40,293 bases of DNA from Acutalibacteraceae bacterium (GCA_045604745.1 JAZUOR010000124.1:1-40293); one strand, 5' to 3'; numbered from the stretch's first letter, positions 13,147 through 30,685 are shown. The notes: generated by a model not told the origin, from the sequence alone. Made by a program: numbers and translations.

Positions 13147-14035
13147 ACGTCCGGCTTTCTGCCAGCATTTTCATTATGGTTCCCAGTACCCGCTTTTTAT
13201 CCAGACTCCACAGCGGTGCTGCCAGTTCGTCCCGCGCACCATCGCCGGTTATCCTGTGCACCACCATTTCCGGCGGCAGCATGCGGATAAGTCTTGCTGC
13301 TATGGCGGCGTATTCCTCCAGTTCGAGTGTGCTTACCTCTCCCCTCAGGTACATCTGCTCAAGAGGCGTGTCACGCAGAATATGCAGAAGCTGGAGCTTG
13401 ATGCCCTCTGAGCCTGCTGCCACAATGTGCCGCACGGTGTTTTCCATGTCAGCTTCTTTCTCTCCCGGCAGTCCGATTATCATGTGGGTTATAACCTCGA
13501 TTCCGGCAGCGTGCAGACGTGCGACGGCATCGTCGTACACCTCCAGCGCGTATCCCCGGTTGATAAGCCGTGCCGTTGCCTCGCTTGCGGTCTGAAGTCC
13601 CAGTTCAACCCATACCGGCTTGATAGCGTTGAGCCTTCCGAGCAGGTCAATCACATCGTCGCCCAGACAGTCCGGACGGGTGGCAATACTCAGCACAGCG
13701 ATGTCCGGACGAGCTATCACCCTGCTGTAGAGAGTATCCAGATATTCCACCGGCGCGTAGGTGTTTGTATAGCTCTGAAAGTAGGCGATGTATCTGTCTG
13801 ACCGGTTCTTGGCGGCAACCTGCGCCTTGGCCTTGTCTATCTGAGCGTCGATATCTCCGCACTGCCGCTGAGCAAAGGCACCCGATCCGTTAAGGCAGAA
13901 GATACAGCCGCCAGTGCCCACAGTACCGTCCCTGTTGGGACAGGTCATACCTCCGTCCAGAGTCAGCTTGTACAGCTTTTCTCCGAAGCGTTCGATCAGA
14001 TAGCTTCCCAGAGTGCGATATCCCGGTATGGGCAA
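13145..14035 (-). CDS. radical SAM protein, TIGR01212-like family
   Basis: The N-terminus (YKLTLDGGMTCPNRDGTVGTGGCIFC) is the characteristic Cys cluster of this family. 296 aa. Confidence 0.85.
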   Translation of the reverse strand: MPIPGYRTLGSYLIERFGEKLYKLTLDGGMTCPNRDGTVGTGGCIFCLNGSGAFAQRQCGDIDAQIDKAKAQVAAKNRSDRYIAYFQSYTNTYAPVEYLDTLYSRVIARPDIAVLSIATRPDCLGDDVIDLLGRLNAIKPVWVELGLQTASEATARLINRGYALEVYDDAVARLHAAGIEVITHMIIGLPGEKEADMENTVRHIVAAGSEGIKLQLLHILRDTPLEQMYLRGEVSTLELEEYAAIAARLIRMLPPEMVVHRITGDGARDELAAPLWSLDKKRVLGTIMKMLAESRT

Positions 14036-14163
14036 AATAATTCCTCCAAATTTTTATTCTTGTAAATATGCAGTTTTTGATGTTTTTCGCGAGGTTTGGT
14101 ATTGTAATATTGCCGCCGATGTAGTAGAATAATTATCACTGTTTGCAAAAAGGAGGCTTGTCT

Positions 14164-14892
14164 ATGCTCGGAAACTATATAAGAGTCACCGTGGATCCGG
14201 TCTTCGAGCAGGGCGTGAAGATCCCGCCCGGCGAGCTGAGAGTTATAAACGGTACAGCCGGTGAGCTCGGAAGCCACGGTGAGCCGGCGGTAAAGGCCTA
14301 TATATTCAGCACAACCGACATGCGCGGACTGATGAAGCTGCGTGTCATTGCGATTATTACCGAAAAAAGCACCGGACGTATCAGCTACGCCGTTGCCGCC
14401 GAACGCATGGTGGTCTATGAGCCTCAGATCCGCGAGCTGCTGGATGACCGGATCACCGGTTCCTACGATGTACAGTGCCTCAACGAAAAATCCTGCGGAG
14501 CGGTGATTTATCGCCGCAAGAGCGGAAATCTTGAATTTCTGCTCATAAAGAATCGCCGCGGCGGAAACTGGGGCTTTCCCAAAGGGCATATCGAGCGCGG
14601 AGAAGACGAAAAGGCCACCGCTCTTCGGGAAGTCAAGGAGGAGACCGGTCTGGACGTTATCCTTACCGAAGGTTTCCGTTCCCTGAGCGAATATCATCCG
14701 CGGGGCCGCATATTCAAGCAGGTGGTATTCTTCCTCGCCGAAATGCCGGAGGGCGGCGAAATAACTCCGCAGCAGTCGGAAATCGACCGCTTCATCTGGG
14801 CCGACTACGGTCTTGCCATGCGCACATTCCGCTTTAACAATGACCGAAACGTCATAACACAGGCTCGCGACTGGCTGCGCTCAGCGCGATAA
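14164..14892 (+). CDS. NUDIX hydrolase with an N-terminal extension of about 100 aa
   Basis: The Nudix box is GFPKGHIERGEDEKATALREVKEETGL. The start at 14164 follows AAGGAGG. Confidence 0.8.
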   Translation: MLGNYIRVTVDPVFEQGVKIPPGELRVINGTAGELGSHGEPAVKAYIFSTTDMRGLMKLRVIAIITEKSTGRISYAVAAERMVVYEPQIRELLDDRITGSYDVQCLNEKSCGAVIYRRKSGNLEFLLIKNRRGGNWGFPKGHIERGEDEKATALREVKEETGLDVILTEGFRSLSEYHPRGRIFKQVVFFLAEMPEGGEITPQQSEIDRFIWADYGLAMRTFRFNNDRNVITQARDWLRSAR

Positions 14893-15543: not shown

Positions 15544-15619
15544 CGGGGTGTAGCGCAGTTGGTAGCGCGCCAGCTTTGGGAGCTGGATGCCGCGAGTTCG
15601 AGTCTCGCCACTCCGACCA
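15544..15619 (+). tRNA. tRNA-Pro, anticodon UGG, with encoded CCA
   Basis: Folded by hand. Acceptor stem CGGGGTG/CACTCCG, D arm GCGC-AGTTGGTA-GCGC, anticodon arm CCAGC-TTTGGGA-GCTGG (anticodon TGG), T arm GCGAG-TTCGAGT-CTCGC, discriminator A, then CCA. Confidence 0.95.
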
Positions 15620-15649
15620 TCATTGGGCTACAAAAAAGATGTCGCCCCG

Positions 15650-15679
15650 AAAAAATCCGCACTATTGTGCGGATTTTTT
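15650..15679 (+). terminator. rho-independent terminator after tRNA-Pro
   Basis: AAAAAATCCGCAC-TATT-GTGCGGATTTTTT forms a perfect hairpin with a U-tract. Confidence 0.8.
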
Positions 15680-15826
15680 CGTATCTGTCACTTGATTTTG
15701 TGACATTCAAAACCGTAGATGTCATCGGAGTTTTTCCAGAGTCGAACTCACGTAATTCTCCTATTTCTGCAAAACAATAACATATCCGCCGTATAAACAA
15801 AGAAAAAACAGAACACTTCAAAGCAC

Positions 15827-15879
15827 AAGCCCGCAGTTTTCTCAAGGAGAAATCCTTCAAAGAACTGCGGGCTTTTTTC
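15827..15879 (+). terminator. conserved terminator-like hairpin immediately upstream of the paralog RBS (copy 1)
   Basis: AAGCCCGCAGTT...AACTGCGGGCTT forms a stem, followed by TTTT. The loop contains CAAGGAGAAATCCT. The same structure recurs at 22983-23033. Confidence 0.6.
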
Positions 15880-15910
15880 ATTTTAAATCAAATTGACCAG
15901 GAGGAAACCA

Positions 15911-16444
15911 ATGTACTTTTCATGCAATCAGTCCCACGCACCCAGATCAATCGATAAGCGCTCTCCAGCCGCATCATGGGATCTTATGATGCGCTCTGCG
16001 CTGTCCGATGTCAAGCATTCCGGATTCAACGAGCGGCTTCGGCGGCACCAGGCAAAGGAAAGCTGCTCCAAGATCTTCTTCGAGAGCGAGAATCACCGGG
16101 AGTTATTCTGCAAAGCCGCAAAACAGCTGCGTAAGGACAGACCTCATATGCTGGCAGTCATATATCTCTTGACAGCCAATCGAACGCTATGGTCAAGAAT
16201 CTGTCACAGAATGATTCCGGCAGAGCTATCGTTCGACAATGATCAGCTGGGCAAGGTTAACATCGGAGCATATACCCTGTTTTCATTTGCAAAAGATCTG
16301 CACACCGGATCGCAGCACATAACGGTTGAAGACATGATAGATCCGACAACTATCCCCGATAAGCTGTTTGCGCTCATATGCAACGCCATCGCTATACATC
16401 AGTTTGGCGTCGGCGCTCTTTCTTTTCTGCCGGACAATCCGTGA
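15911..16444 (+). CDS. conserved mobile-element hypothetical protein, paralog 1 (family not confidently recognised)
   Basis: 177 aa starting at the ATG at 15911 after AGGAGG. By eye it is about half identical to the ORF at 23066-23599 (shared RPxMLAVxYLL, LWSRxC, GKVN, FAKDLHTGSxHI, IPDKxFxLICNAI). Confidence 0.75.
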   Translation: MYFSCNQSHAPRSIDKRSPAASWDLMMRSALSDVKHSGFNERLRRHQAKESCSKIFFESENHRELFCKAAKQLRKDRPHMLAVIYLLTANRTLWSRICHRMIPAELSFDNDQLGKVNIGAYTLFSFAKDLHTGSQHITVEDMIDPTTIPDKLFALICNAIAIHQFGVGALSFLPDNP

Positions 16445-16581
16445 TAAGGCAAGCACAATGTCTCACTGCTTTCTTTGTGCATTGTTGGTATGGATATTGA
16501 AAAAGCATTCATTCATACATATCCATTTTCTCTCGCTCATAGATACTACATAAATATTATTATAACGACTTCCTTATTATA

Positions 16582-16610
16582 TTGCTTTTTTACAATGGGC
16601 GTGATAAAAT
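16582..16610 (+). promoter_or_regulatory. candidate promoter of the two-gene cassette (TTGCTT, 17-nt spacer, TGaTAAAAT extended -10)
   Basis: Read directly. The background is AT-rich, so chance matches are likely. Confidence 0.3.
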
Positions 16611-16707
16611 AAAGCAGTATATCATATATTTTTTAAATGCGAAATGAACAATAGATATTGTACCTAATTAGTGGTAAATCATCTCAATTTCGAAAGGGCT
16701 GTGTTTT

Positions 16708-18801
16708 GTGTCTCATTCTAAGACTTCAATCTATCTGAACGCTATCGGTTGTTTTGCTCGTTATTGGATTAGTAATATTTTCCCCACTGAATACCGTATG
16801 CTTGAAATGCAACCAGAGGGTGTCAATTCCATTAATCTCAGTAGCAAATATCTATATAGCGACGAGGTGCAACTTGCTAAGCTCAAAGAAAATAGAGACA
16901 CTGATATCTTTTTAGCCGCATGTTTTAGCTTGCTGTTCACACGGTATATATCTACCACAATTAATGAGGATGTTAAATACAATAGCATTAATCGTCCTAT
17001 ATTGACTTTTGTTTCCAAAAAAGGGTACTGGCTTTATAGAGTTGCACGAAATGGTCTCTGCTTTATTAAGGATGTATTTTCAAGTAGCACCTATGAAGAG
17101 TGCACAAATTTCTGGAGTGAACTAGTAGAAGTAAAAAGTGATCGATACTTTTTAAAATCGCCCCAAATAAATATGTACTCAAATTGTAATATTATTTTGA
17201 TTGATGATATTAGTCATACAGGTGAAAGCATTTCCGAATTTACAAACACAATGTGGAATGATGGGAGAACAATTCACTGCATAGTATTCGCCATCCACCA
17301 AGATGCTTTGATTCTACTTTCAGAAAAACATATACCTATATACTCTCCAAATAAGGACTTGGACAACGATGCCCTTGGAGAACTTTCTATAAGACAAGTC
17401 GCACTATTTCAAGCACTTGGTGTCCCCTACGCTATTGATCTTCCAATAATAAAACTTGAAAATACGCATTGCCATGAAACCCACAATATTGGAGCATCAT
17501 TTTCAAGTGGATTTATTTCTTTTGATGTCTTTAACAGAATACGTAAGGAGTGCAACGAAAAGGGATGGAAATGTGTTGACACCTCTTTCTTCATTGCGCC
17601 TGACGAAGAAGTAAAAAGCTGTGTCTTTTGCCTGAATACAGACCCACTAATGCCAAAGTATAAGAATTTGTTTCAGAACCTTGTGGTTGAGTGCAGCTAT
17701 AGACATATAGGAGAATATGTGGATGTTTCTCTTGTTCCTTTCGCGATTATGCGCTCAATAAATTTCTATGAATTATTTACTCTATATAATATTGTTTTCA
17801 AAGATACCGATTACAGAGACGAACTATTTATCTTTATAAAAAAATATATTCCTAGCAAAAGATTTTATCAGAATAAACATAATATATACTTTTTCAATAT
17901 CTTGATTACTGCATTATATCGATCATTAGTATATTTTTTCAGTTTGTATGTATCGAAACAATTCCATGAACTATTGAGTCATTATGATATCTTTCTTTGG
18001 ATTGATAACAGCCACGTTTCAGAGCATTGGGACGAATGTTTCTTCAACAGTAACGTTATAGCTTTATTTTCCGATCAATCCGATATTTCTTATAAAGCGC
18101 TTAATTCGATTTTTGAAAAAATATATGCAGTAAACGACATAGAATTAAGCGATGAGTACTGGACTTCAAAAAAAGAGATTTATCCTTTAGCATCATACGA
18201 AAATCTATACTTTATTATGCATAAGTTTTTTTCGCAACCAATAACACATAAAAAAACAAATTTTTGTTCCATCGAACGACTGGAAGCAACTATGTCAAAA
18301 ATTTCAGGAAAACAAATCGATGATTTGTCTTTTCGTAATGAGTTCACACAAACCATTCTTCGAATGTTGAATCAAAGCGCAATAAGCAACTCAATATATT
18401 TTGATCGTAGCAGCGGATTTGTTTTACGCGGATTTCGCCCCGGAGAAAACTGCAATCTACTTCTGCCCTTCAATCAACCTACAGTATTCTGCGCATTATA
18501 CGAGTATTACTCTTGTTGCATCAACAGTTCTACAGAAAAAAATAATGCAGTCTCAATATACAAAAAAAACTATGATCAGATGACAAAGATGCTTTTAGAT
18601 TATATATATGATGCAAGGCTTAACACTTATTTGGATGTAAATGAAACAAAGCATCTATTGGATTATTATCGAAATATTGACCCTGAAGTTCACATTAAAA
18701 ACAAAAAGTACATTGTAACGAATTTAAATGAAAAAAAATCTACTGATGCAATCTTAGCTAAGGTATTACAGAGTCAAGTTCGAACATTTCCATTGCAGTA
18801 A
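16708..18801 (+). CDS. large PRTase-like (phosphoribosyltransferase-fold) protein with a C-terminal region of about 470 aa of unknown function
   Basis: 697-aa ORF. The PRPP-loop signature NIILIDDISHTGESI (nt 17188-17232) lies about 60 aa after a candidate PPi-loop strand, ILTFVSKKGYWLYRVA. The start is uncertain: GTG at 16708 or ATG at 16795. Confidence 0.7.
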   Translation: MSHSKTSIYLNAIGCFARYWISNIFPTEYRMLEMQPEGVNSINLSSKYLYSDEVQLAKLKENRDTDIFLAACFSLLFTRYISTTINEDVKYNSINRPILTFVSKKGYWLYRVARNGLCFIKDVFSSSTYEECTNFWSELVEVKSDRYFLKSPQINMYSNCNIILIDDISHTGESISEFTNTMWNDGRTIHCIVFAIHQDALILLSEKHIPIYSPNKDLDNDALGELSIRQVALFQALGVPYAIDLPIIKLENTHCHETHNIGASFSSGFISFDVFNRIRKECNEKGWKCVDTSFFIAPDEEVKSCVFCLNTDPLMPKYKNLFQNLVVECSYRHIGEYVDVSLVPFAIMRSINFYELFTLYNIVFKDTDYRDELFIFIKKYIPSKRFYQNKHNIYFFNILITALYRSLVYFFSLYVSKQFHELLSHYDIFLWIDNSHVSEHWDECFFNSNVIALFSDQSDISYKALNSIFEKIYAVNDIELSDEYWTSKKEIYPLASYENLYFIMHKFFSQPITHKKTNFCSIERLEATMSKISGKQIDDLSFRNEFTQTILRMLNQSAISNSIYFDRSSGFVLRGFRPGENCNLLLPFNQPTVFCALYEYYSCCINSSTEKNNAVSIYKKNYDQMTKMLLDYIYDARLNTYLDVNETKHLLDYYRNIDPEVHIKNKKYIVTNLNEKKSTDAILAKVLQSQVRTFPLQ

Positions 18802-18872: not shown

Positions 18873-21800
18873 ATGACATGTTTTATCGAACAATGCTTTC
18901 GGAAACGTATTCTTCAGCACCCTGGCGGAAAGGACATCTTGAACAAATGGGAGTCAGATAAAAAGGCTTATCGAGATAGAACTGCTTTGACCGCATTTGA
19001 CTTTCAGCATTTTAGCATGCATGATGAAAGTCACTCTGTAAAGATTCTTAATTATGTTGAGTTGCTTTTAGGCAAAAATCGAATTGCTAATGATTTAAGC
19101 GTAGGCGATTTATGGCTATTGTTAGAGTGCGCATACTTCCATGATATTGGTATGACTCTGACCAAAGATCAGCGAACTAATCTTTGGTTAAATGATAAGA
19201 AATTCAGAGAATACATCACTGACCGATTGAAAGATAATTCAATTGGTCCCCATCGCGATATATTTGAGGCAGCCCAATACTATAAACATGTAGATGACCT
19301 CCTGAATGGCAAATATTCCTCCGAGGTGCTGGACGAAGATATTACTCATACACCAGATTGGCCAGAAACCCTTAACGATAAAATCCGATTGTTAATGACT
19401 GACTATATTCGCCAGCATCATGCGGATTATTGCAGGAATGCATTAGATGAAATCGTGATCAAGGACAGTGAATTCTTCGACGGAGTAATAGAAAAACGAT
19501 TATATGAACTAGTTTCCATTATCTCAGCACAACACACGAAAGAGTTTCACAATATTTTTCTTGATCTCCAGTATCAAGAGATTGCTTTTGGAAATATATA
19601 TATTCATCCGCAGTTTATTGCCGCATTACTTCGCATCGGAGATGTGCTAGATATAGATAATAACCGTTTTAACGTTAGAGTTTTAGACCATATCGGCACT
19701 TTGCCTCCATCGAGTGCTCTTCATCTTGAAAAACATAAATCTTTAACAAACTACAACGTGAGTTCTTACGGAATTACAGCTGTTGCATGTTCATCTGATC
19801 TTGATGTCTGTAAGATCACTCGTGATTGGTTTAACTGGATCGAATCTGAGGTCAAAGAAATAAAATATCATTGGAACAACATTGCTCCCAAAAGACTCAA
19901 TCATTGTCGCCTGAAATTTTGTGATTTAAGAGTGTTCCTTAATGGGAATGAATTTACTTCGCATAATGTTAATCAGTTCAGTTTTGACAGCCGCAAGATG
20001 CAGAAGCTATTAATTGGCGATAGTATATATTCTTGCAAACTCGATTGTATTCGAGAATACATACAAAATTCCATAGATGCGTCAAAAGTAAAAGTATGGG
20101 AAATCCTAAAACACGAAAACGCTGAATATCTCTTCAAAAACAGCAACCATAGTTGGCCTTGGTCAATGACATTGCCATGTGACCTTAAGGAAGATATATT
20201 TAATCAATTTCCTATTAGTATCGAACTATCATTACGTAAGGCAACTAAGCTAGGCGAAATTGATCAGATTATCTTTTCAATTCATGACTACGGAATCGGG
20301 ATGGATAGCGCCTGTGTAAAAGACATAACTACTATCGGTAAAGGCTGGCGTAATCGCCTAGAGTATCAAGATGTATTTTGCAGTGCACCGAAGTGGTTAC
20401 GTCCTACTGGCGGATTTGGAATCGGCATTCAATCTGCATTTATGCTGACGGATCAAGTAATCTATTTAACTCGGTCTGAAAACGAACCATACGGTCATGT
20501 AATTAGATTGGATTCACCATCTAAGGGAGGCAATGTCAGTGATGAGATTCGAAAAGGTGTTTTAAGAGGCACAAAAGTTGAGTTTGCTATTGATGCATTT
20601 TTGTTTTTAGATCCCAGTTTGTTAGGTCTGAGTAACACAGTACAAGAGTATGTCCGCAAAAAAATGAACGCAACAGTCGCAGCGATGTTTTCAGACCAAT
20701 ATTTGTTAGAGCTTGCTGGAACAGTATGTCGTGGATATATTGAGGAACAGCTTCCTAATTCGCTATTTCCGATTCGTTTTAGCTTCCGAGGACAAAAATC
20801 CATTTTGTTACCTTCACCTAGCTATTACGAATATGATATAATCGGTAATGAGATTGTTGGTAAGTACCCGCTTCGCATGCATTCTTTTAAGGACATGAAT
20901 ACTACCGACGTTTTTGAGGATAGCTCAAAAGACTCTTATGTATACCACATTCTTCCCAATGAGCAGATCCCCACTTACGATGGGCGTGATAAAAAAATCA
21001 TTCTATGGAGTCGTACTCACATGGATTGTGTTGATTTTATATTTTCAGATGCACCATTGAATCATTCAATAGGAAAGTCGGCAACCATAACTTTTAAGGA
21101 TATTTTAGTGCCAGATCACGGAAAAGAACTGGAAATCCCAAATGTAATATATAGATATAATCTTTTGGGCCAAACTGCTGGAAACGCACTTCTTGTAAGC
21201 CGTGCAAAGCTAAATCGTGATTTTGAAAGTATTTTTCTTGAAAGACTATATCAATATCTTTATTGCGCCCTTACGATTCTAATCCCTGAATCGATAAAAG
21301 AAAATATTGTTACAGCAAATAGCTATAAGCGAATGTTGTTTGCTTTGATATCTCAGAAAGCATTCCAAAAAGGTCTTTCTGATACAATAAATACATTACA
21401 AATATGTGATCATGCAGACAGCACATATCTGAACACTATTTACCATATCAAACCCACCAATCCAGACGCAGATGACTCATTGCAATATAGTATTGTTAGA
21501 GAAGATGCCAAAAATGCAATTAGCGAATTACTGAAAATACTTAGCAAGTATCACGAGAACCCTTCGCAATGCTTTGTTCTTTACACCCTATCTCATATTG
21601 ATAATACGAACGAATCCATTGTTCCGTCAGCACATTCTTGGATCTCTGTGTTTTCCATTCAACAAACCGAATACTATAATAGCGATGAACTAGAATCTGA
21701 AAATGCGGATAATCTGGACAGCGAATACGATTCTCTTTATTGCGGATTTTTTGAGCAAGATATCGCATCCACAAAATATTCTAGTAAAAAGGAATATGAT

Positions 21801-22379
21801 TCATTGCTGCAAAATATATGTATATTCAGCGAGGATTGGGAGTATTGTTTTGCTAATCTTTTGATAGATAAAAATACTGTGCTAATAAAAAAAATAAGTC
21901 CATTTGTGTTATCCGTAGAAAGTGACGCTCCAACCCTTAATCGGTATTATAAGATAACAAAATTCCATTTTAAAAATGTTGATTCATCAGATATTGATCA
22001 TGAAATTTATCATACTCATCCTTTGTTTGATGACTTAGCATGTCAAGCTAAATATCCACAATTGAGAGTAAAGGCAGTACCTTTCCCAAAATCCGGCAAG
22101 AGTAGCAATTTCAAATTTGCGCATCTTATTCCCGGAAAGGAAATACTAGGCAGCTTAACTGAAGTTGGTTTGAATCATAGGGAAATTACCACAGAAGCTA
22201 TCAGGCAAGCTTTAATTACAGACGCTGGTCTATTAACTGACTTCAAACGTTTGGTTAGGTGGACATACATACACCAATATAAAAATTCAAACGACAATTC
22301 ATATTCCTACCAAGAAATAGAGCAGGCGTACTTGACGATGCTTCTCGATATTATCAAAAGCCTAAACTTCTCAAAATAA
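18873..22379 (+). CDS. giant HD-domain phosphohydrolase fused to a GHKL (Bergerat-fold) ATPase, with a C-terminal region of about 600 aa of unknown function
   Basis: HD motifs: HDESHSV, AYFHDIGM (nt 19140-19145 encode HD), RQHHADY and LLRIGDVLDID. GHKL motifs: N-box IREYIQNSIDA (about 20049-20087), G1 DYGIGMD (20286-20306), G2 GGFGIGIQSAF (20409-20441) and RGTKVEF. I chose the ATG at 18873; the ORF track opens at a TTG at 18834. Confidence 0.8.
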   Translation: MTCFIEQCFRKRILQHPGGKDILNKWESDKKAYRDRTALTAFDFQHFSMHDESHSVKILNYVELLLGKNRIANDLSVGDLWLLLECAYFHDIGMTLTKDQRTNLWLNDKKFREYITDRLKDNSIGPHRDIFEAAQYYKHVDDLLNGKYSSEVLDEDITHTPDWPETLNDKIRLLMTDYIRQHHADYCRNALDEIVIKDSEFFDGVIEKRLYELVSIISAQHTKEFHNIFLDLQYQEIAFGNIYIHPQFIAALLRIGDVLDIDNNRFNVRVLDHIGTLPPSSALHLEKHKSLTNYNVSSYGITAVACSSDLDVCKITRDWFNWIESEVKEIKYHWNNIAPKRLNHCRLKFCDLRVFLNGNEFTSHNVNQFSFDSRKMQKLLIGDSIYSCKLDCIREYIQNSIDASKVKVWEILKHENAEYLFKNSNHSWPWSMTLPCDLKEDIFNQFPISIELSLRKATKLGEIDQIIFSIHDYGIGMDSACVKDITTIGKGWRNRLEYQDVFCSAPKWLRPTGGFGIGIQSAFMLTDQVIYLTRSENEPYGHVIRLDSPSKGGNVSDEIRKGVLRGTKVEFAIDAFLFLDPSLLGLSNTVQEYVRKKMNATVAAMFSDQYLLELAGTVCRGYIEEQLPNSLFPIRFSFRGQKSILLPSPSYYEYDIIGNEIVGKYPLRMHSFKDMNTTDVFEDSSKDSYVYHILPNEQIPTYDGRDKKIILWSRTHMDCVDFIFSDAPLNHSIGKSATITFKDILVPDHGKELEIPNVIYRYNLLGQTAGNALLVSRAKLNRDFESIFLERLYQYLYCALTILIPESIKENIVTANSYKRMLFALISQKAFQKGLSDTINTLQICDHADSTYLNTIYHIKPTNPDADDSLQYSIVREDAKNAISELLKILSKYHENPSQCFVLYTLSHIDNTNESIVPSAHSWISVFSIQQTEYYNSDELESENADNLDSEYDSLYCGFFEQDIASTKYSSKKEYDSLLQNICIFSEDWEYCFANLLIDKNTVLIKKISPFVLSVESDAPTLNRYYKITKFHFKNVDSSDIDHEIYHTHPLFDDLACQAKYPQLRVKAVPFPKSGKSSNFKFAHLIPGKEILGSLTEVGLNHREITTEAIRQALITDAGLLTDFKRLVRWTYIHQYKNSNDNSYSYQEIEQAYLTMLLDIIKSLNFSK

Positions 22380-22413: not shown

Positions 22414-22456
22414 CAACCACTAAACTCGAGCTCCAATGAGCCGAGTTTAGTGGTTG
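22414..22456 (+). terminator. 15-bp perfect-stem hairpin downstream of the cassette (probable terminator)
   Basis: CAACCACTAAACTCG, a 13-nt loop, then CGAGTTTAGTGGTTG, followed by CTTCTTTCTT, 35 nt after the stop codon. Confidence 0.6.
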
Positions 22457-22982
22457 CTTCTTTCTTAGTAATCATCGAAGGGTGGCGAAGCCACTTGATA
22501 AGGTACAATAAAAATAGACATGGTTTTCAGGCTCTTGGTAGAATGAAGTTGCTACACAAACATTCGAAAGGAGAGCAGCCCTTGACGGTGGCGTTGACAT
22601 CTTGAATCCCCATTGCACCCCCATTGAGTTCCGGCAACATGACGGAACTCCTAGACCTCAATTTTTCTTCTTAGCACCGCACTACAACAGAATTATTCCG
22701 AGAGTTCAGCTTCGCATAAATAAATTCACCTACATCATCCTTTTCGTATTACACATACATTATTGGGGTACAATTTAGATGCCCCAGCAAAAAGCCGCAC
22801 AATAGTGCTTTTTTGCGTTAAGAACCTGAATTTTTCGTTGGTGTACAAAAGATGACATATCGCTTTTTCCGATGCTGAACTCAAACATAAACGCATAAAT
22901 CATCCAATTTTGATGGTCAAGAGTAAAAAATCAAAATATTTTTTGATTTATAGACACCACAAACAATTAATTATTCGAAGCA

Positions 22983-23033
22983 AAGCCCGCAGTTTACCCA
23001 AGGAGAAATCCTCAATAGACTGCGGGCTTTTTC
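22983..23033 (+). terminator. conserved terminator-like hairpin upstream of paralog 2 (copy 2)
   Basis: AAGCCCGCAGT...ACTGCGGGCTT followed by TTT, with the same CAAGGAGAAATCCT loop core as copy 1. Confidence 0.6.
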
Positions 23034-23065
23034 TATTTTAAACCAAAAATGAGGAGGTATCATTC

Positions 23066-23599
23066 ATGTACTTTTCAGACAGTCCGTCCACCAGACCTCG
23101 CTTCCCCTGTCAGACCGATCCGCCCACTACATGGGATGCCATGATCCTCTCCGTGTTGAGTGATCTTGATAACGACAACTTCCGGTACCGGCTCAACAGG
23201 ATGATTACAAGAGGAAAACCATCCGGCATATTCTTTGCAAATGAAACTCACTACCGGATATTCTACCGAGGCTCAAAGCAGCTCCGGCAGGATCGCCCGT
23301 ATATGCTTGCGGTGGTATATCTGCTCTCCTCCTGTAAAAGATTGTGGTCAAGAGTCTGCAGCGATAAGCTGCCAAGTGAGATCGTATCCGATGATAAGGC
23401 TATAGGCAAAGTCAATGGAAACATCTACACCATATACTCATTCGCAAAGGATTTGCACACCGGCTCACGCCACATATCGGTCGGAGATATGGCAGATGTC
23501 CTGCTTATCCCCGACAAACAGTTCGTTCTCATCTGCAACGCCATCACAATACACAGCTTTGGCGTAGCGGCTTTGGACTTTATGCCGAACGAATCATAA
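23066..23599 (+). CDS. conserved mobile-element hypothetical protein, paralog 2
   Basis: 177 aa, with RBS GAGGAGG. Paralogous to 15911-16444. Confidence 0.75.
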   Translation: MYFSDSPSTRPRFPCQTDPPTTWDAMILSVLSDLDNDNFRYRLNRMITRGKPSGIFFANETHYRIFYRGSKQLRQDRPYMLAVVYLLSSCKRLWSRVCSDKLPSEIVSDDKAIGKVNGNIYTIYSFAKDLHTGSRHISVGDMADVLLIPDKQFVLICNAITIHSFGVAALDFMPNES

Positions 23600-23709
23600 T
23601 CGGCTACTCACAATGATGCGAGGGAAATCTTGTGCATTGTTGGTATAGATATCAGCCAACCGAGGTGATATTGTCTTGAACTAAAATACGACTGGAGGAG
23701 GTGATCACC

Positions 23710-23994
23710 ATGCAATCGGAAACCATCAGGCAGCTATATAACGGAACACTTGTGCCAAGCGAATGGCCTTTGCCGGACACTCTGGAAAACACATCTCTCA
23801 ACGCTGAAGTAGTTGAACGGCTCAATGCCCTGCTCAATCGTCTGGACGACGAGGATAAAAAGGCACTCGGAGAACTCATGAGCGCAAAGAATCTTATGAT
23901 GCAGCGCTATTCCGAGCAGGCATTTGTTGACGGCTACAAGACTGCCACCACTCTGCTGTTTGAGGGGCTTGCCGGATTAGAACGAATCGAATAA
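23710..23994 (+). CDS. small conserved ICE hypothetical protein
   Basis: 94 aa from the ATG at 23710 after GGAGGAGG. The QLYNGTLVPSEW N-terminus resembles small helical proteins common in Clostridia conjugative elements. A hairpin (GCCGCATGAA...TTCATGCGGC, 24015-24044) follows. Confidence 0.6.
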   Translation: MQSETIRQLYNGTLVPSEWPLPDTLENTSLNAEVVERLNALLNRLDDEDKKALGELMSAKNLMMQRYSEQAFVDGYKTATTLLFEGLAGLERIE

Positions 23995-24073
23995 GTGAAA
24001 CCCACAGCCGCTATGCCGCATGAAGCTCATCTGTTTCATGCGGCAATTTCTATAACCGAAGGAGAAATTCTCA

Positions 24074-24385
24074 ATGAATAAATTTGACAGAATGCGCCGG
24101 GATGCCGAAATAAACAAACGGCTGTATCCTCCCGGAACACGCATCGAGCTCATCAAAATGAACGATCCTTACGCACCCGTAGAACCGTTGACGACAGGCA
24201 CGGTTGTCGCTGTTGACGATGCCGGAAGTCTCATCATGAAGTGGGATAACGGCAGAACCCTTTCCGTCATTCCCGGCGAAGATTCTTTCCGTAAAATCGC
24301 ACTGGAGGCAGAACAGTCTGCGTCAGAAGCTCCCGAAAACAATGCGGAAGAACCTACTGAAGAATCCCCCACAATAAGTATGTAA
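24074..24385 (+). CDS. DUF4314-like small protein
   Basis: YPPGTRIELIKMNDPYAPVEPLTTGTVVAVDDAGSLIMKWDNGRTLSVIPGEDSF matches my recollection of the DUF4314 core seen in Firmicutes mobile elements. Confidence 0.65.
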   Translation: MNKFDRMRRDAEINKRLYPPGTRIELIKMNDPYAPVEPLTTGTVVAVDDAGSLIMKWDNGRTLSVIPGEDSFRKIALEAEQSASEAPENNAEEPTEESPTISM

Positions 24386-24398
24386 AGGAGAAATAACA

Positions 24399-26015
24399 AT
24401 GATTTCTATTTTCATCTACACCCACAATCGTCATATTCCTGAGAATGCGTTCACCGCAAATATCACTCTTCCGGCTGAAGCCATCCTCATCGAGGACGCT
24501 CTGAGCCGTGCAAGATACAAGGACAACGGTCAGAGCAGCATCAGCATCGGCGAGTGCATTGCCCTCCCTGAACTGGAGGGAATGAACATTTCCTTCGCCA
24601 ATATTGACGAGCTGAATTTCCTCGCAGGTCGTCTGTCCGGACTCTCCAGACCGCAGCTTGCTGCTTTCGGTGCGATCCTCGGACGCGAGGAATTCAAGAA
24701 CGGATCCTCCATCCGTGACCTCATCAACATCAGCTACGGCTTGGATGATATTCACGTATGGGCTGTTGGCAGCGACGAGGAATACGGTCGAATGGTTGTT
24801 GAAAACAATCTGCTGGAGGATCTTGAAAACATTCCCGATTCTGCGCTCGGATATCTTGATTATGCCAAGATCGGAGAATCCGTGCGTACTGCCGAGGGCG
24901 GTGAATTCAGGAACGGTATGTATGTTGTCACCCCTCATTTTGAAATGCCTGATATTTACGACGGCATCGATCTGCCCGAAGAAAACAACGACCACACCGT
25001 GTTCAGGCTGTGCGATTCCGACCGTGAGGAAGATGACGAAACCATTCTGAATCTTCCCTGTGATCCGCAGATGCTTGACGATGTGGAGGGCGAACTTGAC
25101 ATCGTGAGTGCATTCCCCTGTATCGATCCCAACGACTTCGACGATACCTTCACACTTGAAGATCTCAACGCTCTGGCGGAGCGCATTTCCGAGCTATCGG
25201 AGGATGACCGCATCAAACTTCGCGCCGTGTGTTCGGCTCACGCACCGCATAGCTGCGAGGATGTTCTCGACAGCATTTCTTCTCTGGACGAATATCAGCT
25301 TGACAGCAGCATATCCTACGCTGATGATTTTGCAAAGGTATACCTTGCCGCAAATCTTCCGGAGGACTTTGACACCAGCCTTCTTGACAGCCTTGGACTT
25401 TATGGCTTCGGAACACAGCTGATGAACCGTCTGAATGCAAGCTCCACGCCATACGGTATTCTGTCTGCCAAGGGCGGTCTGCTCACCGAGGTAGTCAAAG
25501 CCGAGGGCATCGTTGCTGAAGATCCGGACATAACCGTTGAGCTTTCCGATGACGAATCAGAGGAAAGCGAAAATGTGACTGTCTCTGAGCCGGAGGACTC
25601 CATAGAACAGGAACCTCCCTCGGAGCTGGATCAGAACACAGATGCCGGTGGCGGCGACACCGGAACAGAACAGGATCTGACCGCTGAACGGCTCGATGTC
25701 GTCGAGGTGTTCGGTCAGACCGCTCTCTTCTCCAATGCAAGAATTCTCGAATCCCAGCTCCCGGAGGGTCTCTACAAGTACGATCTCCGACAGGGCGGTG
25801 AGATGGCTTTCGCCAGCATGGAAAAGGTTGTCGGTGTTGACCACGCCGGAACGCTGATCTCCTCGCAGCCCTTTGACTTCGCAGATGACAGCTGTATCCC
25901 CTTCGACGAGGACTCGTCTCCCAACTTCCTCGGCTACGACATGAGCCTCGAAGAATACATGAACGCTTCCTTCGAGCAGTCTGAAAGTCAGGATGCAGGG
26001 GGTATCTCGATGTGA
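24399..26015 (+). CDS. ArdA-like antirestriction domain fused to a long, very acidic C-terminal extension (polyvalent-type ICE protein)
   Basis: The segment SDEEYGRMVVENNLLEDLENIPDSALGYLDYAKIGESVRTAEGGEFRNGMYVV parallels the ArdA C-terminal pattern (..Y.IEE.G.LGE.P..L..YIDY...GRD....G.F...G). The rest is D/E-rich. RBS is AAGGAG. Confidence 0.6.
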   Translation: MISIFIYTHNRHIPENAFTANITLPAEAILIEDALSRARYKDNGQSSISIGECIALPELEGMNISFANIDELNFLAGRLSGLSRPQLAAFGAILGREEFKNGSSIRDLINISYGLDDIHVWAVGSDEEYGRMVVENNLLEDLENIPDSALGYLDYAKIGESVRTAEGGEFRNGMYVVTPHFEMPDIYDGIDLPEENNDHTVFRLCDSDREEDDETILNLPCDPQMLDDVEGELDIVSAFPCIDPNDFDDTFTLEDLNALAERISELSEDDRIKLRAVCSAHAPHSCEDVLDSISSLDEYQLDSSISYADDFAKVYLAANLPEDFDTSLLDSLGLYGFGTQLMNRLNASSTPYGILSAKGGLLTEVVKAEGIVAEDPDITVELSDDESEESENVTVSEPEDSIEQEPPSELDQNTDAGGGDTGTEQDLTAERLDVVEVFGQTALFSNARILESQLPEGLYKYDLRQGGEMAFASMEKVVGVDHAGTLISSQPFDFADDSCIPFDEDSSPNFLGYDMSLEEYMNASFEQSESQDAGGISM

Positions 26016-26605
26016 TTACACAGATATCTACCGATGATCTCCGCAAAATGAAAGGCAGTGAGGGACTGATCATTCAGGGCTGCGGAGGTGACCTGAACCA
26101 ATGGGTCGACGGAATAAATGACCTATTGACCAAAGCCGGAATACTGCCGGACGGGAAGACATTTACCGATGCATCGCAGTTTTCCAATGACGGCGTGACC
26201 TGTCTGCTGTTCAAGTTTACCGATGACCTGAAGCATCTTGATGTGGGTAAGCTGGCAATATGGCGTCTGCAGACCCACGAAGCTTTCGGAGGCACATGGC
26301 TTTCCGATTATGTCCCTAACCGCCTTGGAGGATTCATATCAAATCCTTCCGGAGCAGAAAGAAAAAAGCCCGATTGTGAGCTGATCGGGAAAGACGGCAA
26401 CATCTTTAATCTCGTTGGAATTGCGGCAAGAACCCTGAATCGCAACGGGATGTCTGATGAAGCCAAAGAGATGTCATCCAGAGTGTTTGCGTCGGGAGAC
26501 TATAACGAAGCTCTCTGTATCATCGGTGAATATGTCAACATTGTCGGCTCGGACGTGAACTTCGACGAGGACTTCGGCGGAGATCTCAATCCCATGACGA
26601 TGTAA
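26012..26605 (+). CDS. hypothetical ICE protein (unknown function)
   Basis: 197-aa ORF with coding-like composition. Its GTG start overlaps the stop of the upstream gene (ATGTGA), suggesting coupling. Confidence 0.6.
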   Translation: MITQISTDDLRKMKGSEGLIIQGCGGDLNQWVDGINDLLTKAGILPDGKTFTDASQFSNDGVTCLLFKFTDDLKHLDVGKLAIWRLQTHEAFGGTWLSDYVPNRLGGFISNPSGAERKKPDCELIGKDGNIFNLVGIAARTLNRNGMSDEAKEMSSRVFASGDYNEALCIIGEYVNIVGSDVNFDEDFGGDLNPMTM

Positions 26606-26798
26606 TAAAAATCAAACCGGTATCAGTCGTTCTGCGGAATGAATGATGCCGACTTTTTTGCATATTTTTTCAAATCAAAAAGCTACTGCAAAAATCCGAG
26701 AGGAAGGCCGCGCTTATTGCCGACTCGAAGGATTTTTGTTAGTAGTCTTATTTGAAGAATTATGTTTTCCGCTGGACGATTGATGCCAACGGAGGTGA

Positions 26799-27794
26799 AT
26801 GCCTGTAGAAATACCCTACCAACCCCTTGACAGCCCGGTAACATGGGTGGGCAGTAAAAAGAAACTTCGCGCCATTCTCTATGCTGTGTTCCCTGCGGGT
26901 TACAGCAGGTATATTGAGGTCTTTGGCGGCAGCGGAAATGTTCTGCTCGGAAAACCACCGGATTGCTTTGAAGTATACAACGACTTCAACGGCGATCTTG
27001 TCAATCTCTTCCGATGCATCCGCGACCGTCCGATGGCTCTGTTAAGCAATCTCGGCTTCCTTAATCTCAACTCAAGGGATGACTTCAAGGTGCTTCGCAA
27101 ATTCTTCAAGCAAGAGGAATTTCACGATGATTTCCTTGAAGAAGAACTTGAACTGACACGACTGATGCTTCCGGAGTGCAGTGCACAGGAGATAATAGAG
27201 CTGAGAAACACAAAAGCCAAAGACTTTGATGTACGCAGAGCTTCCATGTATCTGCGTCTGATCCGCACCAGCTACTCCAGCATGGGCAAAAGCTTTGCAA
27301 GCCAGCCGTTTCATGTCGGAAAGCTGAAATCCCTGATATGGGATGCATACCGCAGGCTCGAAACGATTGTGATTGAAAACCAGCACTTCGCTGTGCTCAT
27401 AAAGCATTATGATCGCAGGGGTGCTTTTTTCTATTGTGATCCGCCGTACCTCAACACAGAAACGATGTATGACGCTATGTTCAACTGGGATGACCATCTT
27501 GCCTTGCGAAAACTCGCCGGGGACTGCAAGGGGTATTTCCTGATATCGTACAACGACTGTCCGGAAATACGCAATCTGTATTACGGCTTCTGGTTCTTCG
27601 ATTTCAAGAGAGCGCATTGCATGGCACAGAGAACAGACCCCGGAAAGGAATTTCCGGAGCTGCTCATCGCCAACTACGATATGTTCGCTCCGCATCGGGA
27701 AAAGCCTACGCAGACCACCTTGTTTGAAGATGACAAGGAACTTTCTGAAGAAGAAATAAACCAAATCATAAAGGAGTGTATTATCAATGGATAA
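26799..27794 (+). CDS. orphan N6-adenine DNA methyltransferase, Dam/D12 class
   Basis: VTWVGSKKKL (Dam N-terminal motif), EVFGGSGNV (SAM-binding FxGxG) and FFYCDPPY (catalytic DPPY) are present. No adjacent restriction endonuclease gene. Confidence 0.85.
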   Translation: MPVEIPYQPLDSPVTWVGSKKKLRAILYAVFPAGYSRYIEVFGGSGNVLLGKPPDCFEVYNDFNGDLVNLFRCIRDRPMALLSNLGFLNLNSRDDFKVLRKFFKQEEFHDDFLEEELELTRLMLPECSAQEIIELRNTKAKDFDVRRASMYLRLIRTSYSSMGKSFASQPFHVGKLKSLIWDAYRRLETIVIENQHFAVLIKHYDRRGAFFYCDPPYLNTETMYDAMFNWDDHLALRKLAGDCKGYFLISYNDCPEIRNLYYGFWFFDFKRAHCMAQRTDPGKEFPELLIANYDMFAPHREKPTQTTLFEDDKELSEEEINQIIKECIING

Positions 27795-28292: not shown

Positions 28293-28387
28293 TGCAGCAC
28301 AGCGAAAACTCACAACTCAAGTAAAGGAAGTGACCGTGTGCCTCGATCTCCCCCTGAAAATATAATACACAACCGAACACTTTCCCA

Positions 28388-28418
28388 AGCCCGACCCGAA
28401 AAAGGTCGGGCTTTTTTT
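28388..28418 (+). terminator. rho-independent terminator
   Basis: AGCCCGACC-CGAAAAA-GGTCGGGCT followed by TTTTTTT. Confidence 0.85.
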
Positions 28419-28472
28419 GCGCCCATTTTCCAAAATCAACAACAAAAAATATAAAATTTGGAGGAATTCAAA

Positions 28473-29297
28473 ATGAAAAATAAGACCCGTATCACTTCTC
28501 TCGTTCTCGCTCTCATCATGCTCGTCAGCGTGTTCGTTCCGACGATGTCTGCCAGCGCAGCCAACCTCTATACCTCGCAGGCTCGTGAGGGAACATATAT
28601 CGTAGCCAATATGAGCGAGTACAGCTGCGGTGTTCAGGTTCGTACCACTTCCAGCTACAATTACGGCAGCAAGATCGGTACTATCTATCCTGATATGGCT
28701 TACAAGTATCTGAATGTGACCGAAACCGATGAACACGGCAGAGACTGGTTCAAAATCCAGTACAGCACCGGTAAAACCGGCTGGGTATGCGACACCTATA
28801 CCCACAAGGTCACCGTCCATTCCAGAAACAAGGTGCTCACCACCGGCAGCCAGATCAACATGAGAAAAGGCCCGGGAACCAGCTACGCAACTTACGGTCT
28901 CAGCTACGCCAATACCTACTACTCCATCATTGGCTGTGCTGGCGAGGGCTTTACCATCAACGGAACAAAATGGTATCAGGTCATGGATAACAACAATCGC
29001 GTGTTCTGGTTCAAGGGTACTCTGCTGTCCAAGGTAGAGGTGTACACTACCGTGACCTGTGATGTCGACACCGGAACCTATTTTACTCGCACTTACAATT
29101 TCAAAGCTGCATCCTATGCCCGTACCGGTCCGAGTACCTCTAACAGCAAGGTTCGCAGCACCACCTTTAACACCAAAGCGATCATAGACATCACCAGCGT
29201 AAAGCTCAACACCAAAGGCGAATTGTGGTACGGCGTTCAGATCCGTGACGGCGGCAAGCTGTATAACGGATATGTGCTTGGTTCGCTGCTGAAATAA
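28473..29297 (+). CDS. secreted protein with tandem bacterial SH3-like domains
   Basis: Signal peptide MKNKTRITSLVLALIMLVSVFVPTMSASA. Repeated patterns of the type ..V.VRT..S....KIGTIYPD..Y......E.GRDWFKIQYSTGKTGWV and ..INMRKGPGTSY.....Y.....I.G.....TINGTKWYQV are SH3b-like. Confidence 0.65.
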   Translation: MKNKTRITSLVLALIMLVSVFVPTMSASAANLYTSQAREGTYIVANMSEYSCGVQVRTTSSYNYGSKIGTIYPDMAYKYLNVTETDEHGRDWFKIQYSTGKTGWVCDTYTHKVTVHSRNKVLTTGSQINMRKGPGTSYATYGLSYANTYYSIIGCAGEGFTINGTKWYQVMDNNNRVFWFKGTLLSKVEVYTTVTCDVDTGTYFTRTYNFKAASYARTGPSTSNSKVRSTTFNTKAIIDITSVKLNTKGELWYGVQIRDGGKLYNGYVLGSLLK

Positions 29298-29349
29298 TCT
29301 CTCCGCAAAAATCCAATCCCAATATCCTACAAGCAAGGGGGTGATAAGA

Positions 29350-30611: not shown

Positions 30612-30685
30612 TACTCGAATCAACTCAAATCAGCGTCGCAGGACATCCTCCTGCGGCGCTGAACTCATTTCAGGAGGTATTCTTA

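Follow-up and report, generated by a model that had tools for sequence, protein, structure and literature searches.

Can an ATPase of the Hsp90 chaperone type act as the switch of a bacterial conflict system, and on what would the effector that it controls act? The question is raised by a two-gene locus on a stretch of 40,293 nt, one strand, from an Acutalibacteraceae bacterium (GCA_045604745.1 JAZUOR010000124.1:1-40293), referred to here as the window. The second gene of the locus, open reading frame (ORF) B, encodes a protein in which an HD phosphohydrolase stands N-terminal to a GHKL ATPase, as had been proposed in a sequence-only reading of the window; both domains were found to be real. 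The first gene, ORF A, encodes a partner protein with a phosphoribosyltransferase (PRTase) fold. Stated in general terms, we consider it likely that this locus functions as a conflict system whose HD effector is gated by an ATPase.

Two Genes in a Low-GC Island

The two genes and the repeat that follows them were placed as listed here.

16708 to 18801, plus strand: ORF A, 697 amino acids from GTG 16708, the partner gene 5' of ORF B
18873 to 22379, plus strand: ORF B, 1168 amino acids, with an HD-CE domain, an Hsp90-like ATPase, a variable region, and a helical C-terminus, in this order
22414 to 22456, plus strand: perfect 15-bp inverted repeat, 35 nt past the ORF B stop

The coordinates previously given for ORF B were borne out with respect to start, ribosome-binding site, stop, and length. 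The start codon is the ATG at position 18873, which has an AAGGA Shine-Dalgarno sequence about 11 nt to its 5' side, and the stop codon ends at position 22379. A start at TTG 18834 would give the longest mechanical ORF; the ATG was preferred because the homologs align from it with an invariant M1 in an alignment of 48 sequences (22% to 53% identity), to which all conservation values for ORF B given below refer. For ORF A, the GTG at position 16708 is preceded by GAAAGGG 9 nt upstream, and the alternative ATG at position 16798 has no ribosome-binding site.

The two genes are co-directional and both are located inside an island with a GC content of 33% to 39% over approximately 16.5 to 23 kb, as compared to about 52% in the flanks. 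They are separated by 71 nt, and a search for terminator-like sites in this gap gave none. Because the intergenic gaps across the gene pairs range from only 24 to 71 nt and the gap in the window contains no terminator, the two genes were taken to form an operon, which is likely closed by the inverted repeat acting as a transcription terminator. It was also noted that a 23-nt direct repeat, TTAC(A/G)ATGGGCGTGATAAAA, is present in the promoter region of ORF A (16590 to 16612) and within ORF B (20975 to 20997), with 21 of the 23 positions identical, which may be due to chance.

An HD-CE Domain at the N-Terminus of ORF B

The ORF B protein was divided into five regions, the first of which is the putative effector.

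18873 to 19907, plus strand: HD-CE phosphohydrolase domain, amino acids 1 to 345, from the match to Pfam PF24391 and the invariant residues
19980 to 20627, plus strand: Hsp90-type GHKL ATP-binding domain, amino acids ~370 to 585, with motifs I to IV and matches to Hsp90 N-domains
20628 to 21302, plus strand: Hsp90-type middle (transducer) domain, amino acids ~586 to 810, with R777 in LLVSRAKL and K742
21303 to 22022, plus strand: hypervariable region, amino acids 811 to 1050, candidate sensor or recognition part
22023 to 22376, plus strand: helical C-terminal domain, amino acids 1051 to 1168, moderately conserved

The Pfam family HD-CE (PF24391) matched amino acids 44 to 328 of ORF B with an E-value of 8.7e-42 and a score of 144.1 bits (cut-off 27), covering positions 1 to 262 of the 263 in the model, and the family was present in all 120 of the 120 ORF B homologs listed. 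The residues H50, H54, H90, D91, H183, H221, D257, and D260, which include the metal-binding pattern H...HD...H...H...D (H54, H90, D91, H183, H221, D257), were invariant. All of the motifs from which the domain had originally been recognized were present and conserved, namely H54 in ESHSV, H90-D91 in FHDIGM, H183 in RQHHADY, and D257 in RIGDVLDID. The distance to the GHKL domain was revised, since 138 residues rather than about 120 separate the last HD aspartate, D257, from the first GHKL motif at E395. An AlphaFold2 model of ORF B built on the alignment had a mean predicted local distance difference test (pLDDT) score of 79.4 and a predicted template modeling (pTM) score of 0.66, and the pLDDT values of the HD domain were mostly between 85 and 97.

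The activity predicted for the HD-CE family is nucleotide hydrolysis. Alternatively, the architecture and its regulation could be the same and the HD domain could be a nuclease that degrades the DNA or RNA of the invader or the host, like Cas3 or Cas10, which we consider unlikely. HD domains do include nucleases, and there is no close solved relative of the HD region of ORF B: a profile of this region gave no significant match to PDB sequences, the best being PDE8A (E-value 0.12) over the HxxxH...HD segment, which in this weak match resembles the pattern of cyclic-nucleotide phosphodiesterases. On the other hand, Pfam finds no nucleic-acid-binding domain in the 1168 residues. The family name also points away from a nuclease, in that CE stands for conflict effector and the sister family, Calcineurin-CE, was predicted to target nucleotide pools by Nicastro, Burroughs, Iyer & Aravind 2023 (PMC12871103).

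An Hsp90-Type ATPase Follows the HD Domain

The GHKL domain of ORF B contains motif I (E395xxxN399xxD402), motif II (D472xGxG), motif III (GGFGIG), and motif IV (G566-T567). The residues E395, N399, D402, D472, G474, G476, G516, and G518 were invariant, and G566 and T567 were conserved in at least 90% of the sequences, so that the Bergerat boxes reported earlier as EYIQNSIDA, DYGIGMD, GGFGIGIQSAF, and RGTKVEF are all present and conserved. The third of these is a signature of the Hsp90 clade and resembles GQFGVGFYSAF of Hsp90.

Searches of PDB sequences with phmmer and with a family profile recovered only the N-domains of Hsp90-family proteins (endoplasmin/GRP94, HtpG, TRAP1, and Hsp82), with E-values down to 9e-17, and the Pfam family HATPase_c_3 matched ORF B with an E-value of 0.065. 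A Foldseek search with the ORF B model identified full-length HtpG, GRP94, TRAP1, and Hsp90-beta as the best matches, with E-values of 3e-10 to 1e-8 over 500 to 550 columns, a span that takes in both the N-domain and the middle domain of Hsp90. Approximately 39 Hsp90 entries were found at E-values of 3e-10 to 1e-6, whereas SMCHD1, TopoVI-B, GyrB, and MutL were found at about 2e-6 to 6e-6; the matches to MutL, GyrB, and TopoVI-B were 3 to 4 orders of magnitude weaker than the best Hsp90 matches. Sequence comparisons and the predicted structure unambiguously place the GHKL module in the Hsp90 clade. A clamp of the MORC or MutL type, to which the sequence-only reading had also referred, was rejected for ORF B, as Hsp90 structures dominate among both the fold and the sequence matches; the GHKL fold as such was upheld.

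The similarity to Hsp90 extends beyond the ATP-binding domain. The second stretch of an alignment of the family profile to HtpG (2iop_A) covered HtpG residues 194 to 530 and placed R777 of LLVSRAKL on the arginine of LNVSRE. In Hsp90, this arginine of the middle domain (R380 in yeast) completes the ATPase site. R777 was invariant and K742 was conserved in at least 90% of the sequences. A transducer-like domain is thus present after the GHKL domain, as had been thought possible, but it is of the Hsp90 middle-domain kind rather than the MORC or MutL kind. About 225 of the roughly 600 residues that had been described as uncharacterized could in this way be assigned, and the remainder consists of the hypervariable stretch and the helical C-terminus.

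ORF B is not an ortholog of HtpG: the scores against the NCBIfam HSP90/HtpG equivalogs were 26.2 bits for NF010683, with a cut-off of 455, and 22.8 bits for NF003555, with a cut-off of 371. The conserved residues make both the HD and the GHKL domain look catalytically competent. That the motifs in the two domains might be chance matches was rejected, given that the Pfam (8.7e-42), Hsp90 profile (9e-17), and Foldseek (3e-10) matches are all significant. We infer that hydrolysis by ORF B would be ATP-gated. The Hsp90 module suggests a protein- or client-type sensor rather than a DNA clamp, and a chaperone-type ATPase in place of a DNA-clamp GHKL also speaks against the HD domain being a nuclease. 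In support of a nuclease, pairings of GHKL domains with nucleases are known from conflict systems, such as the paraMORC-HEPN fusions in restriction-modification (R-M) neighborhoods and sacsin, in which Hsp90-like repeats are combined with HEPN (PMC3710099).

The C-Terminal Half Contains a Hypervariable Region

The amino acid sequence identity to ORF B was calculated separately for each region. For close homologs, the values were 52% in the HD segment and 56% in the GHKL segment, 33% in the middle domain, 15% to 17% in amino acids 811 to 1050, and 25% in amino acids 1051 to 1168, and the corresponding values for distant homologs were 38%, 35%, 16%, about 10%, and 17%. The region comprising amino acids 811 to 1050 is rich in indels, is shortened in a clade of stand-alone proteins of about 950 to 1060 amino acids, and includes an acidic segment (amino acids 911 to 970) with pLDDT values below 50. 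The last 118 residues had an occupancy of 0.9 in the alignment, with helices spanning amino acids 1089 to 1167 in the AlphaFold2 model, and could possibly serve as a dimerization element, by analogy with the C-terminal domain of Hsp90. A Pfam scan of the C-terminal 568 residues gave no match.

It had been suggested that the C-terminal half of the protein is the target-recognition part. This suggestion can be retained for amino acids 811 to 1050, since their hypervariability fits a recognition role. The combination of conserved enzymatic domains with a single hypervariable module would, by analogy, correspond to the pattern seen for immune sensor regions.

ORF A Is a PRTase-Fold Partner of ORF B

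The AlphaFold2 model of ORF A had a pLDDT score of 83.8 and a pTM score of 0.88, and the only structures recovered by Foldseek were type I PRTases (OPRT, UPRT, HGPRT, APRT, and XPRT), which matched approximately 170 N-terminal residues with a probability of about 1.0. The remaining ~450 residues had no structural match in the PDB and BFVD. The protein contains a phosphoribosyl pyrophosphate (PRPP) loop motif, IILIDDISHTGES, in which D138, D139, and G144 are invariant, and an HGPRT-like loop, FVSKKGYW, in which K76, K77, and G78 are invariant, so that both the fold and the acidic-acidic...TG PRPP-binding loop of type I PRTases were found in ORF A. A partner with a nucleotide- or PRPP-binding fold is a further point against a nuclease function for the HD domain.

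No Pfam family matched ORF A above threshold. Within the wider ORF A family, Pribosyltran was found in 20 of 78 proteins (best E-value 1.8e-7) and PRTase_2 in 10. The family PRTase-CE (PF24390), the accession number of which is consecutive to that of HD-CE (PF24391), did not match ORF A and matched weakly 3 of 18 close and 1 of the 78 distant relatives, with scores that did not exceed 16.8 bits (cut-off 27), in matches that were confined to the PRPP-loop region. The 18 proteins were returned by a word-indexed homolog search with the ORF A alignment, whereas an exhaustive HMMER search identified a family of 205 clusters among 1.84 billion representatives; most of the matches listed were full-length, at about 550 to 700 amino acids, and the rest look like fragments. 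ORF A represents a rare PRTase-fold family for which Pfam has no separate entry.

To survey the linkage of the two genes, ORFs were called in 85 sequences and searched with the ORF A profile. A relative of ORF A adjoins the gene for the HD-Hsp90 protein in the window and in all of the closest loci (L001 to L007 and L009 to L015) except L008, which is a contig of 3.4 kb and too short to show the partner gene. The amino acid sequence identity of ORF A was 36% to the protein encoded upstream of homolog P0006 and 23% (E-value 2e-21) to its counterpart in L003. No ORF A relatives were found with the profile in the more distant loci L016 to L084. A reverse look-up from the ORF A relatives P0136 and P0138 revealed an adjoining HD-CE gene of 1184 or 1122 amino acids. 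ORF A is an obligate partner within this clade of ORF B proteins, and many of the more distant ORF B relatives are stand-alone.

Several of the related operons contain a third, poorly conserved gene for a protein of about 210 to 240 amino acids, located between the genes for the PRTase-like and the HD-Hsp90 proteins. Extra genes were observed in L003 (7316 to 8032 and 11572 to 12558), L012 (1336 to 1845), L006, L007, L009 to L012, and L090. The third genes showed 14% to 18% identity to the first such sequence, with no convincing alignment and no significant Pfam family. A DUF4231/SLATT membrane protein with 2 transmembrane segments is also encoded in a few of these operons; the cassette in the window has neither a third gene nor a SLATT gene. 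It was also noted that the HD-Hsp90 frame is split or duplicated in L020 (4694 to 9889, with 405, 560, and 880 amino acids), L009 (795 and 276 amino acids), L007, and L060, and these frames may represent pseudogenes, assembly frameshifts, or tandem paralogs.

Distribution and Neighbors of the HD-Hsp90 Genes

Relatives of the HD-Hsp90 core were identified in 191 of 185,579 species representatives, or about 0.1%, with a patchy distribution over Bacillota, Bacteroidota, Pseudomonadota, Campylobacterota, Spirochaetota, Fusobacteriota, Fibrobacterota, Myxococcota, and one archaeal metagenome-assembled genome. Plasmids (7 of 72,556) and phages (1 of 50,697 records) also carried such relatives, which in GenBank were named only "ATP-binding protein" or "hypothetical protein". 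A megablast search with the DNA of the cassette gave no match in 5,426 complete Escherichia coli genomes. The ORF B family is rare and horizontally transferred. The distribution and the neighbors had been singled out as informative from the outset, and the result was a sparse spread across phyla, with ORF A, R-M genes, and an integrative and conjugative element (ICE) in the neighborhoods.

This distribution bears on whether the two proteins have an ordinary cellular function, as a specialized chaperone that is accompanied by a PRTase and an HD nucleotidase for nucleotide salvage. The folds of Hsp90 and of PRTases are classic housekeeping folds, and yet such a function is scarcely credible here: the genes occur in about 0.1% of the species in a pattern that is patchy across phyla, the copy in the window is located in a low-GC island on an ICE, the HtpG/HSP90 equivalog scores are 23 to 26 bits against cut-offs of 371 to 455, and ORF A is extended by about 450 residues of unmatched fold and belongs to a family of so few clusters. 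A housekeeping chaperone, and with it the idea of a housekeeping family, was rejected on the distribution, the GC content, and the equivalog scores.

Stand-alone HD-Hsp90 genes directly adjoin type I R-M trios (R, M, and S) in L024, L028, L035, L049, and L061. The HD-Hsp90 gene overlaps the preceding gene by 4 nt in L024 and L049, which suggests that it is co-transcribed with the R-M genes. A scan of 127 proteins encoded in the neighborhoods of the stand-alone clade gave 8 matches to type IIG enzymes and 7 to type I methylases, and other neighbors included an RmrA-like regulator, an Abi protein, and an adjacent pair of an AAA ATPase and a UvrD helicase, which was read as Gabija-like. Such neighbors fit a gene of defense islands. 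The frequent location of ORF B relatives beside R-M systems, which target DNA, is also a point in favor of the HD domain being a nuclease. Searches of PHROGs gave no match to either ORF A or ORF B.

The Cassette Is Cargo of an ICE

The features that surround the cassette in the window are as follows.

15544 to 15619, plus strand: tRNA-Pro(TGG), followed by a perfect hairpin at 15648 to 15681
15822 to 16497, plus strand: left module copy, with a hairpin, an ORF of 183 amino acids (15893 to 16444), and the 23-mer TTGTGCATTGTTGGTATGGATAT
22982 to 23652, plus strand: right module copy, with a hairpin, an ORF of 177 amino acids (23066 to 23599), and the 23-mer, identical at 22 of 23 positions

To the left of the cassette are the tRNA-Pro gene and genes that look chromosomal, for an M42 peptidase, a Wzy_C protein, and a radical-SAM protein, while the genes to the right are of the type found on ICEs of Bacillota and encode DUF6809, DUF4314, ArdA-LPD28, a D12 methylase, a thioester/SpaA adhesin, YpsA-SLOG, TrbL_5, and a sortase. 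No integrase was seen in the annotated part of the window, from about 9.9 to 39.3 kb. The conjugative element, with the ORF A/B cassette as its first cargo, probably integrated at the tRNA-Pro gene, and the area of the tRNA gene and the hairpin is likely the boundary or the attachment site between the chromosomal genes and the element.

The two module copies that bracket the cassette are about 70% identical at the nucleotide level, and the proteins of 183 and 177 amino acids are 51% identical (E-value 7e-67), with no match in Pfam or PHROGs. The 23-mer reads TTGTGCATTGTTGGTAT(G/A)GATAT across the copies, and the homology between the copies stops exactly after it. The duplicated module may represent a hotspot for the insertion of cargo, a recombination site, or tandem accretion. 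The ORF A/B copy in the window is ICE cargo that was inserted between duplicated modules beside the tRNA-Pro gene.

Two alternative explanations follow from this location. Firstly, the pair could be an addiction or stabilization module of the ICE, similar to a toxin-antitoxin system, with the HD hydrolase as the toxin and ORF A as its neutralizer. The position of the cassette as ICE cargo bordered by a duplicated module agrees with this explanation, as do a related locus that lies beside genes for ParE/Phd and a type IV secretion system and the strict linkage of the two genes, as seen in toxin-antitoxin pairs. We nevertheless regard it as improbable, since toxin-antitoxin systems do not usually consist of such large multi-domain proteins, many ORF B relatives stand alone without ORF A, the pair in L087 is flanked by housekeeping genes with no mobile element visible, and the hypervariable region suggests a target that changes.

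Secondly, the pair could serve in counter-defense during transfer of the ICE, so that the HD domain as a phosphodiesterase and the PRTase-like protein destroy the signals of CBASS, Pycsar, Thoeris, or type III CRISPR systems. The cassette does adjoin an anti-restriction cluster of the ICE (ArdA-LPD28, DUF4314, and the orphan D12 methylase), and the HD segment contains the weak phosphodiesterase-like motif. However, the anti-defense proteins known to degrade signals are small and unregulated, whereas ORF B combines an ATPase switch with a hypervariable region, the GC content of the cassette is sharply unlike that of the ICE backbone, the relatives are chromosomal and located beside R-M, Abi, and Gabija-like genes, and the family is almost absent from phages. 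A role in counter-defense is accordingly very improbable.

Further observations were made on the element itself. The segment from 23701 to 27794 is a cluster in the style of an ICE leading region, with genes for DUF6809, DUF4314, a 538-amino-acid ArdA + LPD28 polyvalent protein, a 197-amino-acid protein with no Pfam match, and a D12 N6-adenine methylase that is apparently an orphan. The gene at 30584 to 35083 encodes a surface protein of 1499 amino acids, probably the adhesin that the element uses in mating, which combines a thioester (TED) domain with 10 SpaA/prealbumin-like repeats, and a sortase gene is located nearby (38529 to 39299). At 36041 to 36553, a gene for a YpsA-type SLOG protein adjoins TrbL_5; in conflict systems, SLOG domains are predicted to bind nucleotides. 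No Pfam family was found for the proteins of 408 (28317 to 29546, minus strand), 261 (29826 to 30611, plus strand), and 232 amino acids (13996 to 14697, minus strand), and the last of these, the only one of the three that was scanned against PHROGs, matched no family there.

A Proposed Two-Gene Conflict System

The more specific proposal is that ORF A and ORF B form a two-gene conflict system, directed against phages or plasmids and probably abortive, that is carried as ICE cargo and has a nucleotide-directed HD effector; in our estimate this is an even call. The activation logic would be as follows. The Hsp90-type ATPase of ORF B would act as a switch, in the role that STAND, ABC, or SMC nucleoside triphosphatases (NTPases) have in other immune proteins. 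A cue derived from the invader would bind to the hypervariable region after the middle domain and bring about ATP-dependent closure or dimerization of the N-domains, and closure would license the N-terminal HD-CE domain, a metal-dependent phosphohydrolase. The presumed substrates of this domain are phosphate linkages in free nucleotides, for example (deoxy)nucleoside triphosphates, (d)NTPs, or signaling nucleotides. ORF A would bind a ribose-5-phosphate compound and either finish the degradation, on the side of nucleoside monophosphates and PRPP, or gate ORF B according to the nucleotide state. The defense phenotype would be starvation of invader replication or abortive infection. The proposal draws on the intact catalytic residues of the HD and Hsp90-type domains, the strict linkage of the two genes, the sensor-like variability of amino acids 811 to 1050, and the setting on a mobile element and near defense genes. 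It also draws on a recurrent nucleotide theme, made up of the PRTase fold of ORF A, the SLATT proteins of some related operons, and the weak phosphodiesterase-like pattern in the HD segment.

Several points weigh against this proposal. The HD region has no significant relative among solved structures, and other HD domains, such as those of Cas3 and Cas10, are nucleases. Judged from its sequence, ORF A is not a bona fide member of PRTase-CE, which makes a catalytic role for it tentative. The association with defense islands is a rough count and not a controlled enrichment test, no family in PADLOC-DB v2.0.0 matched ORF A or ORF B at an E-value of at most 1, and the literature search found no experiment on any member of the ORF B family.

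A bolder form of the proposal, which we regard as doubtful, is that the Hsp90-fold ATPase is itself the pathogen sensor, which would bind proteins of phages or plasmids like clients, through the hypervariable region after the middle domain, and trigger demolition of the nucleotide pool by two enzymes, with the HD-CE domain cleaving phosphate bonds and the PRTase-fold protein acting on the ribose-5-phosphate/glycosidic side. If true, this would be the first experimentally tractable chaperone-fold innate immune receptor in bacteria, along with a new PRTase-based effector family. If only the published prediction were confirmed, the result would be a useful but incremental addition to the catalog, with domains that are unsurprising to a specialist who knows the 2023 paper. 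That Hsp90-fold modules substitute for STAND NTPases in bacterial immunity is a proposal from comparative genomics. The locus makes it testable in a compact two-gene form that has kept every catalytic residue and resides on a mobile element in a gut-type member of the Bacillota. The trigger of the Hsp90 module and the substrate of HD-CE would show whether a chaperone-type ATPase governs nucleotide depletion.

Comparison with Known Systems

The class to which the locus is related was defined computationally. Calcineurin-CE, HD-CE, and PRTase-CE are said to be predicted as nucleotide-degrading effectors in the abstract of Nicastro et al. 2023 (NAR 51:11479), which reportedly also describes HSP90- and HSP70-related modules as analogs of STAND and GTPase domains that are coupled to effectors. 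No experimental work on an HSP90-coupled conflict system was found in a literature search, and searches for HD-CE/PF24391, for Hsp90 or GHKL with HD in phage defense, and for sacsin with anti-phage activity gave nothing on this architecture. Hsp90 is unmentioned in a broad 2026 review of defense systems and in Kaur et al. 2020 and 2021 and Payne et al. 2024, nor is PRTase mentioned in those of these four publications that were searched for this term. ORF B agrees with the HSP90-coupled CE systems in its full-length, high-scoring HD-CE domain, its Hsp90-like module, and its mobile-element or defense-island context, while ORF A differs in that it falls short of PRTase-CE by score and its large C-terminal part is without a match.

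ORF B shares with the Hsp90 chaperones HtpG, GRP94, TRAP1, and Hsp82 the glycine-rich signature of the N-domain and the catalytic arginine of the middle domain, but it is non-orthologous, carries an N-terminal HD enzyme and a hypervariable region after the middle domain, and has a sporadic, horizontal spread. Sacsin and the paraMORC-HEPN (Ymh) proteins likewise combine a GHKL ATPase and a hydrolytic effector in one polypeptide, and the paraMORC versions are located in R-M neighborhoods. However, their effector is a C-terminal, metal-independent HEPN RNase, whereas that of ORF B is an N-terminal, metal-dependent HD domain, and the GHKL domain of ORF B belongs to the Hsp90 clade rather than to the MORC clade. 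One ORF B homolog, P0094, carries a second Pfam family, PF25794, which is probably related to sacsin.

For the PUA-Calcineurin-CE-HAD system, depletion of dNTPs with the help of a partner phosphatase was later demonstrated (PMC12871103), and a dNTPase-NTase (nucleotidyltransferase) pair from the same set of predictions was validated as the Clover defense system, with the HD dNTPase CloA and the NTase CloB (PMC12265719). These systems resemble the locus in that they consist of two genes, for a metal-dependent phosphoesterase and a second nucleotide enzyme, and their action, dNTP depletion, is also the one proposed here for the locus. They differ in their sensors, which are a PUA domain that binds m6-dAMP and signals made by the NTase, in the absence of an Hsp90 module and a PRTase fold, and in their effectors, which are Calcineurin-CE and a dGTPase-like HD domain and not HD-CE. 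STAND/Avs, PrrC/RloC, Gabija, Septu, and Lamassu similarly combine an NTPase switch, a variable sensor, and a hydrolytic effector and are located in defense islands or on mobile elements, but their ATPases are P-loop NTPases, which are unrelated to the Bergerat fold of ORF B. The combination of HD-CE with Hsp90 is not a new architecture; what the locus adds to it is an Hsp90-type GHKL with the middle-domain arginine, a two-gene clade with a rare PRTase-fold partner, and a location as ICE cargo.

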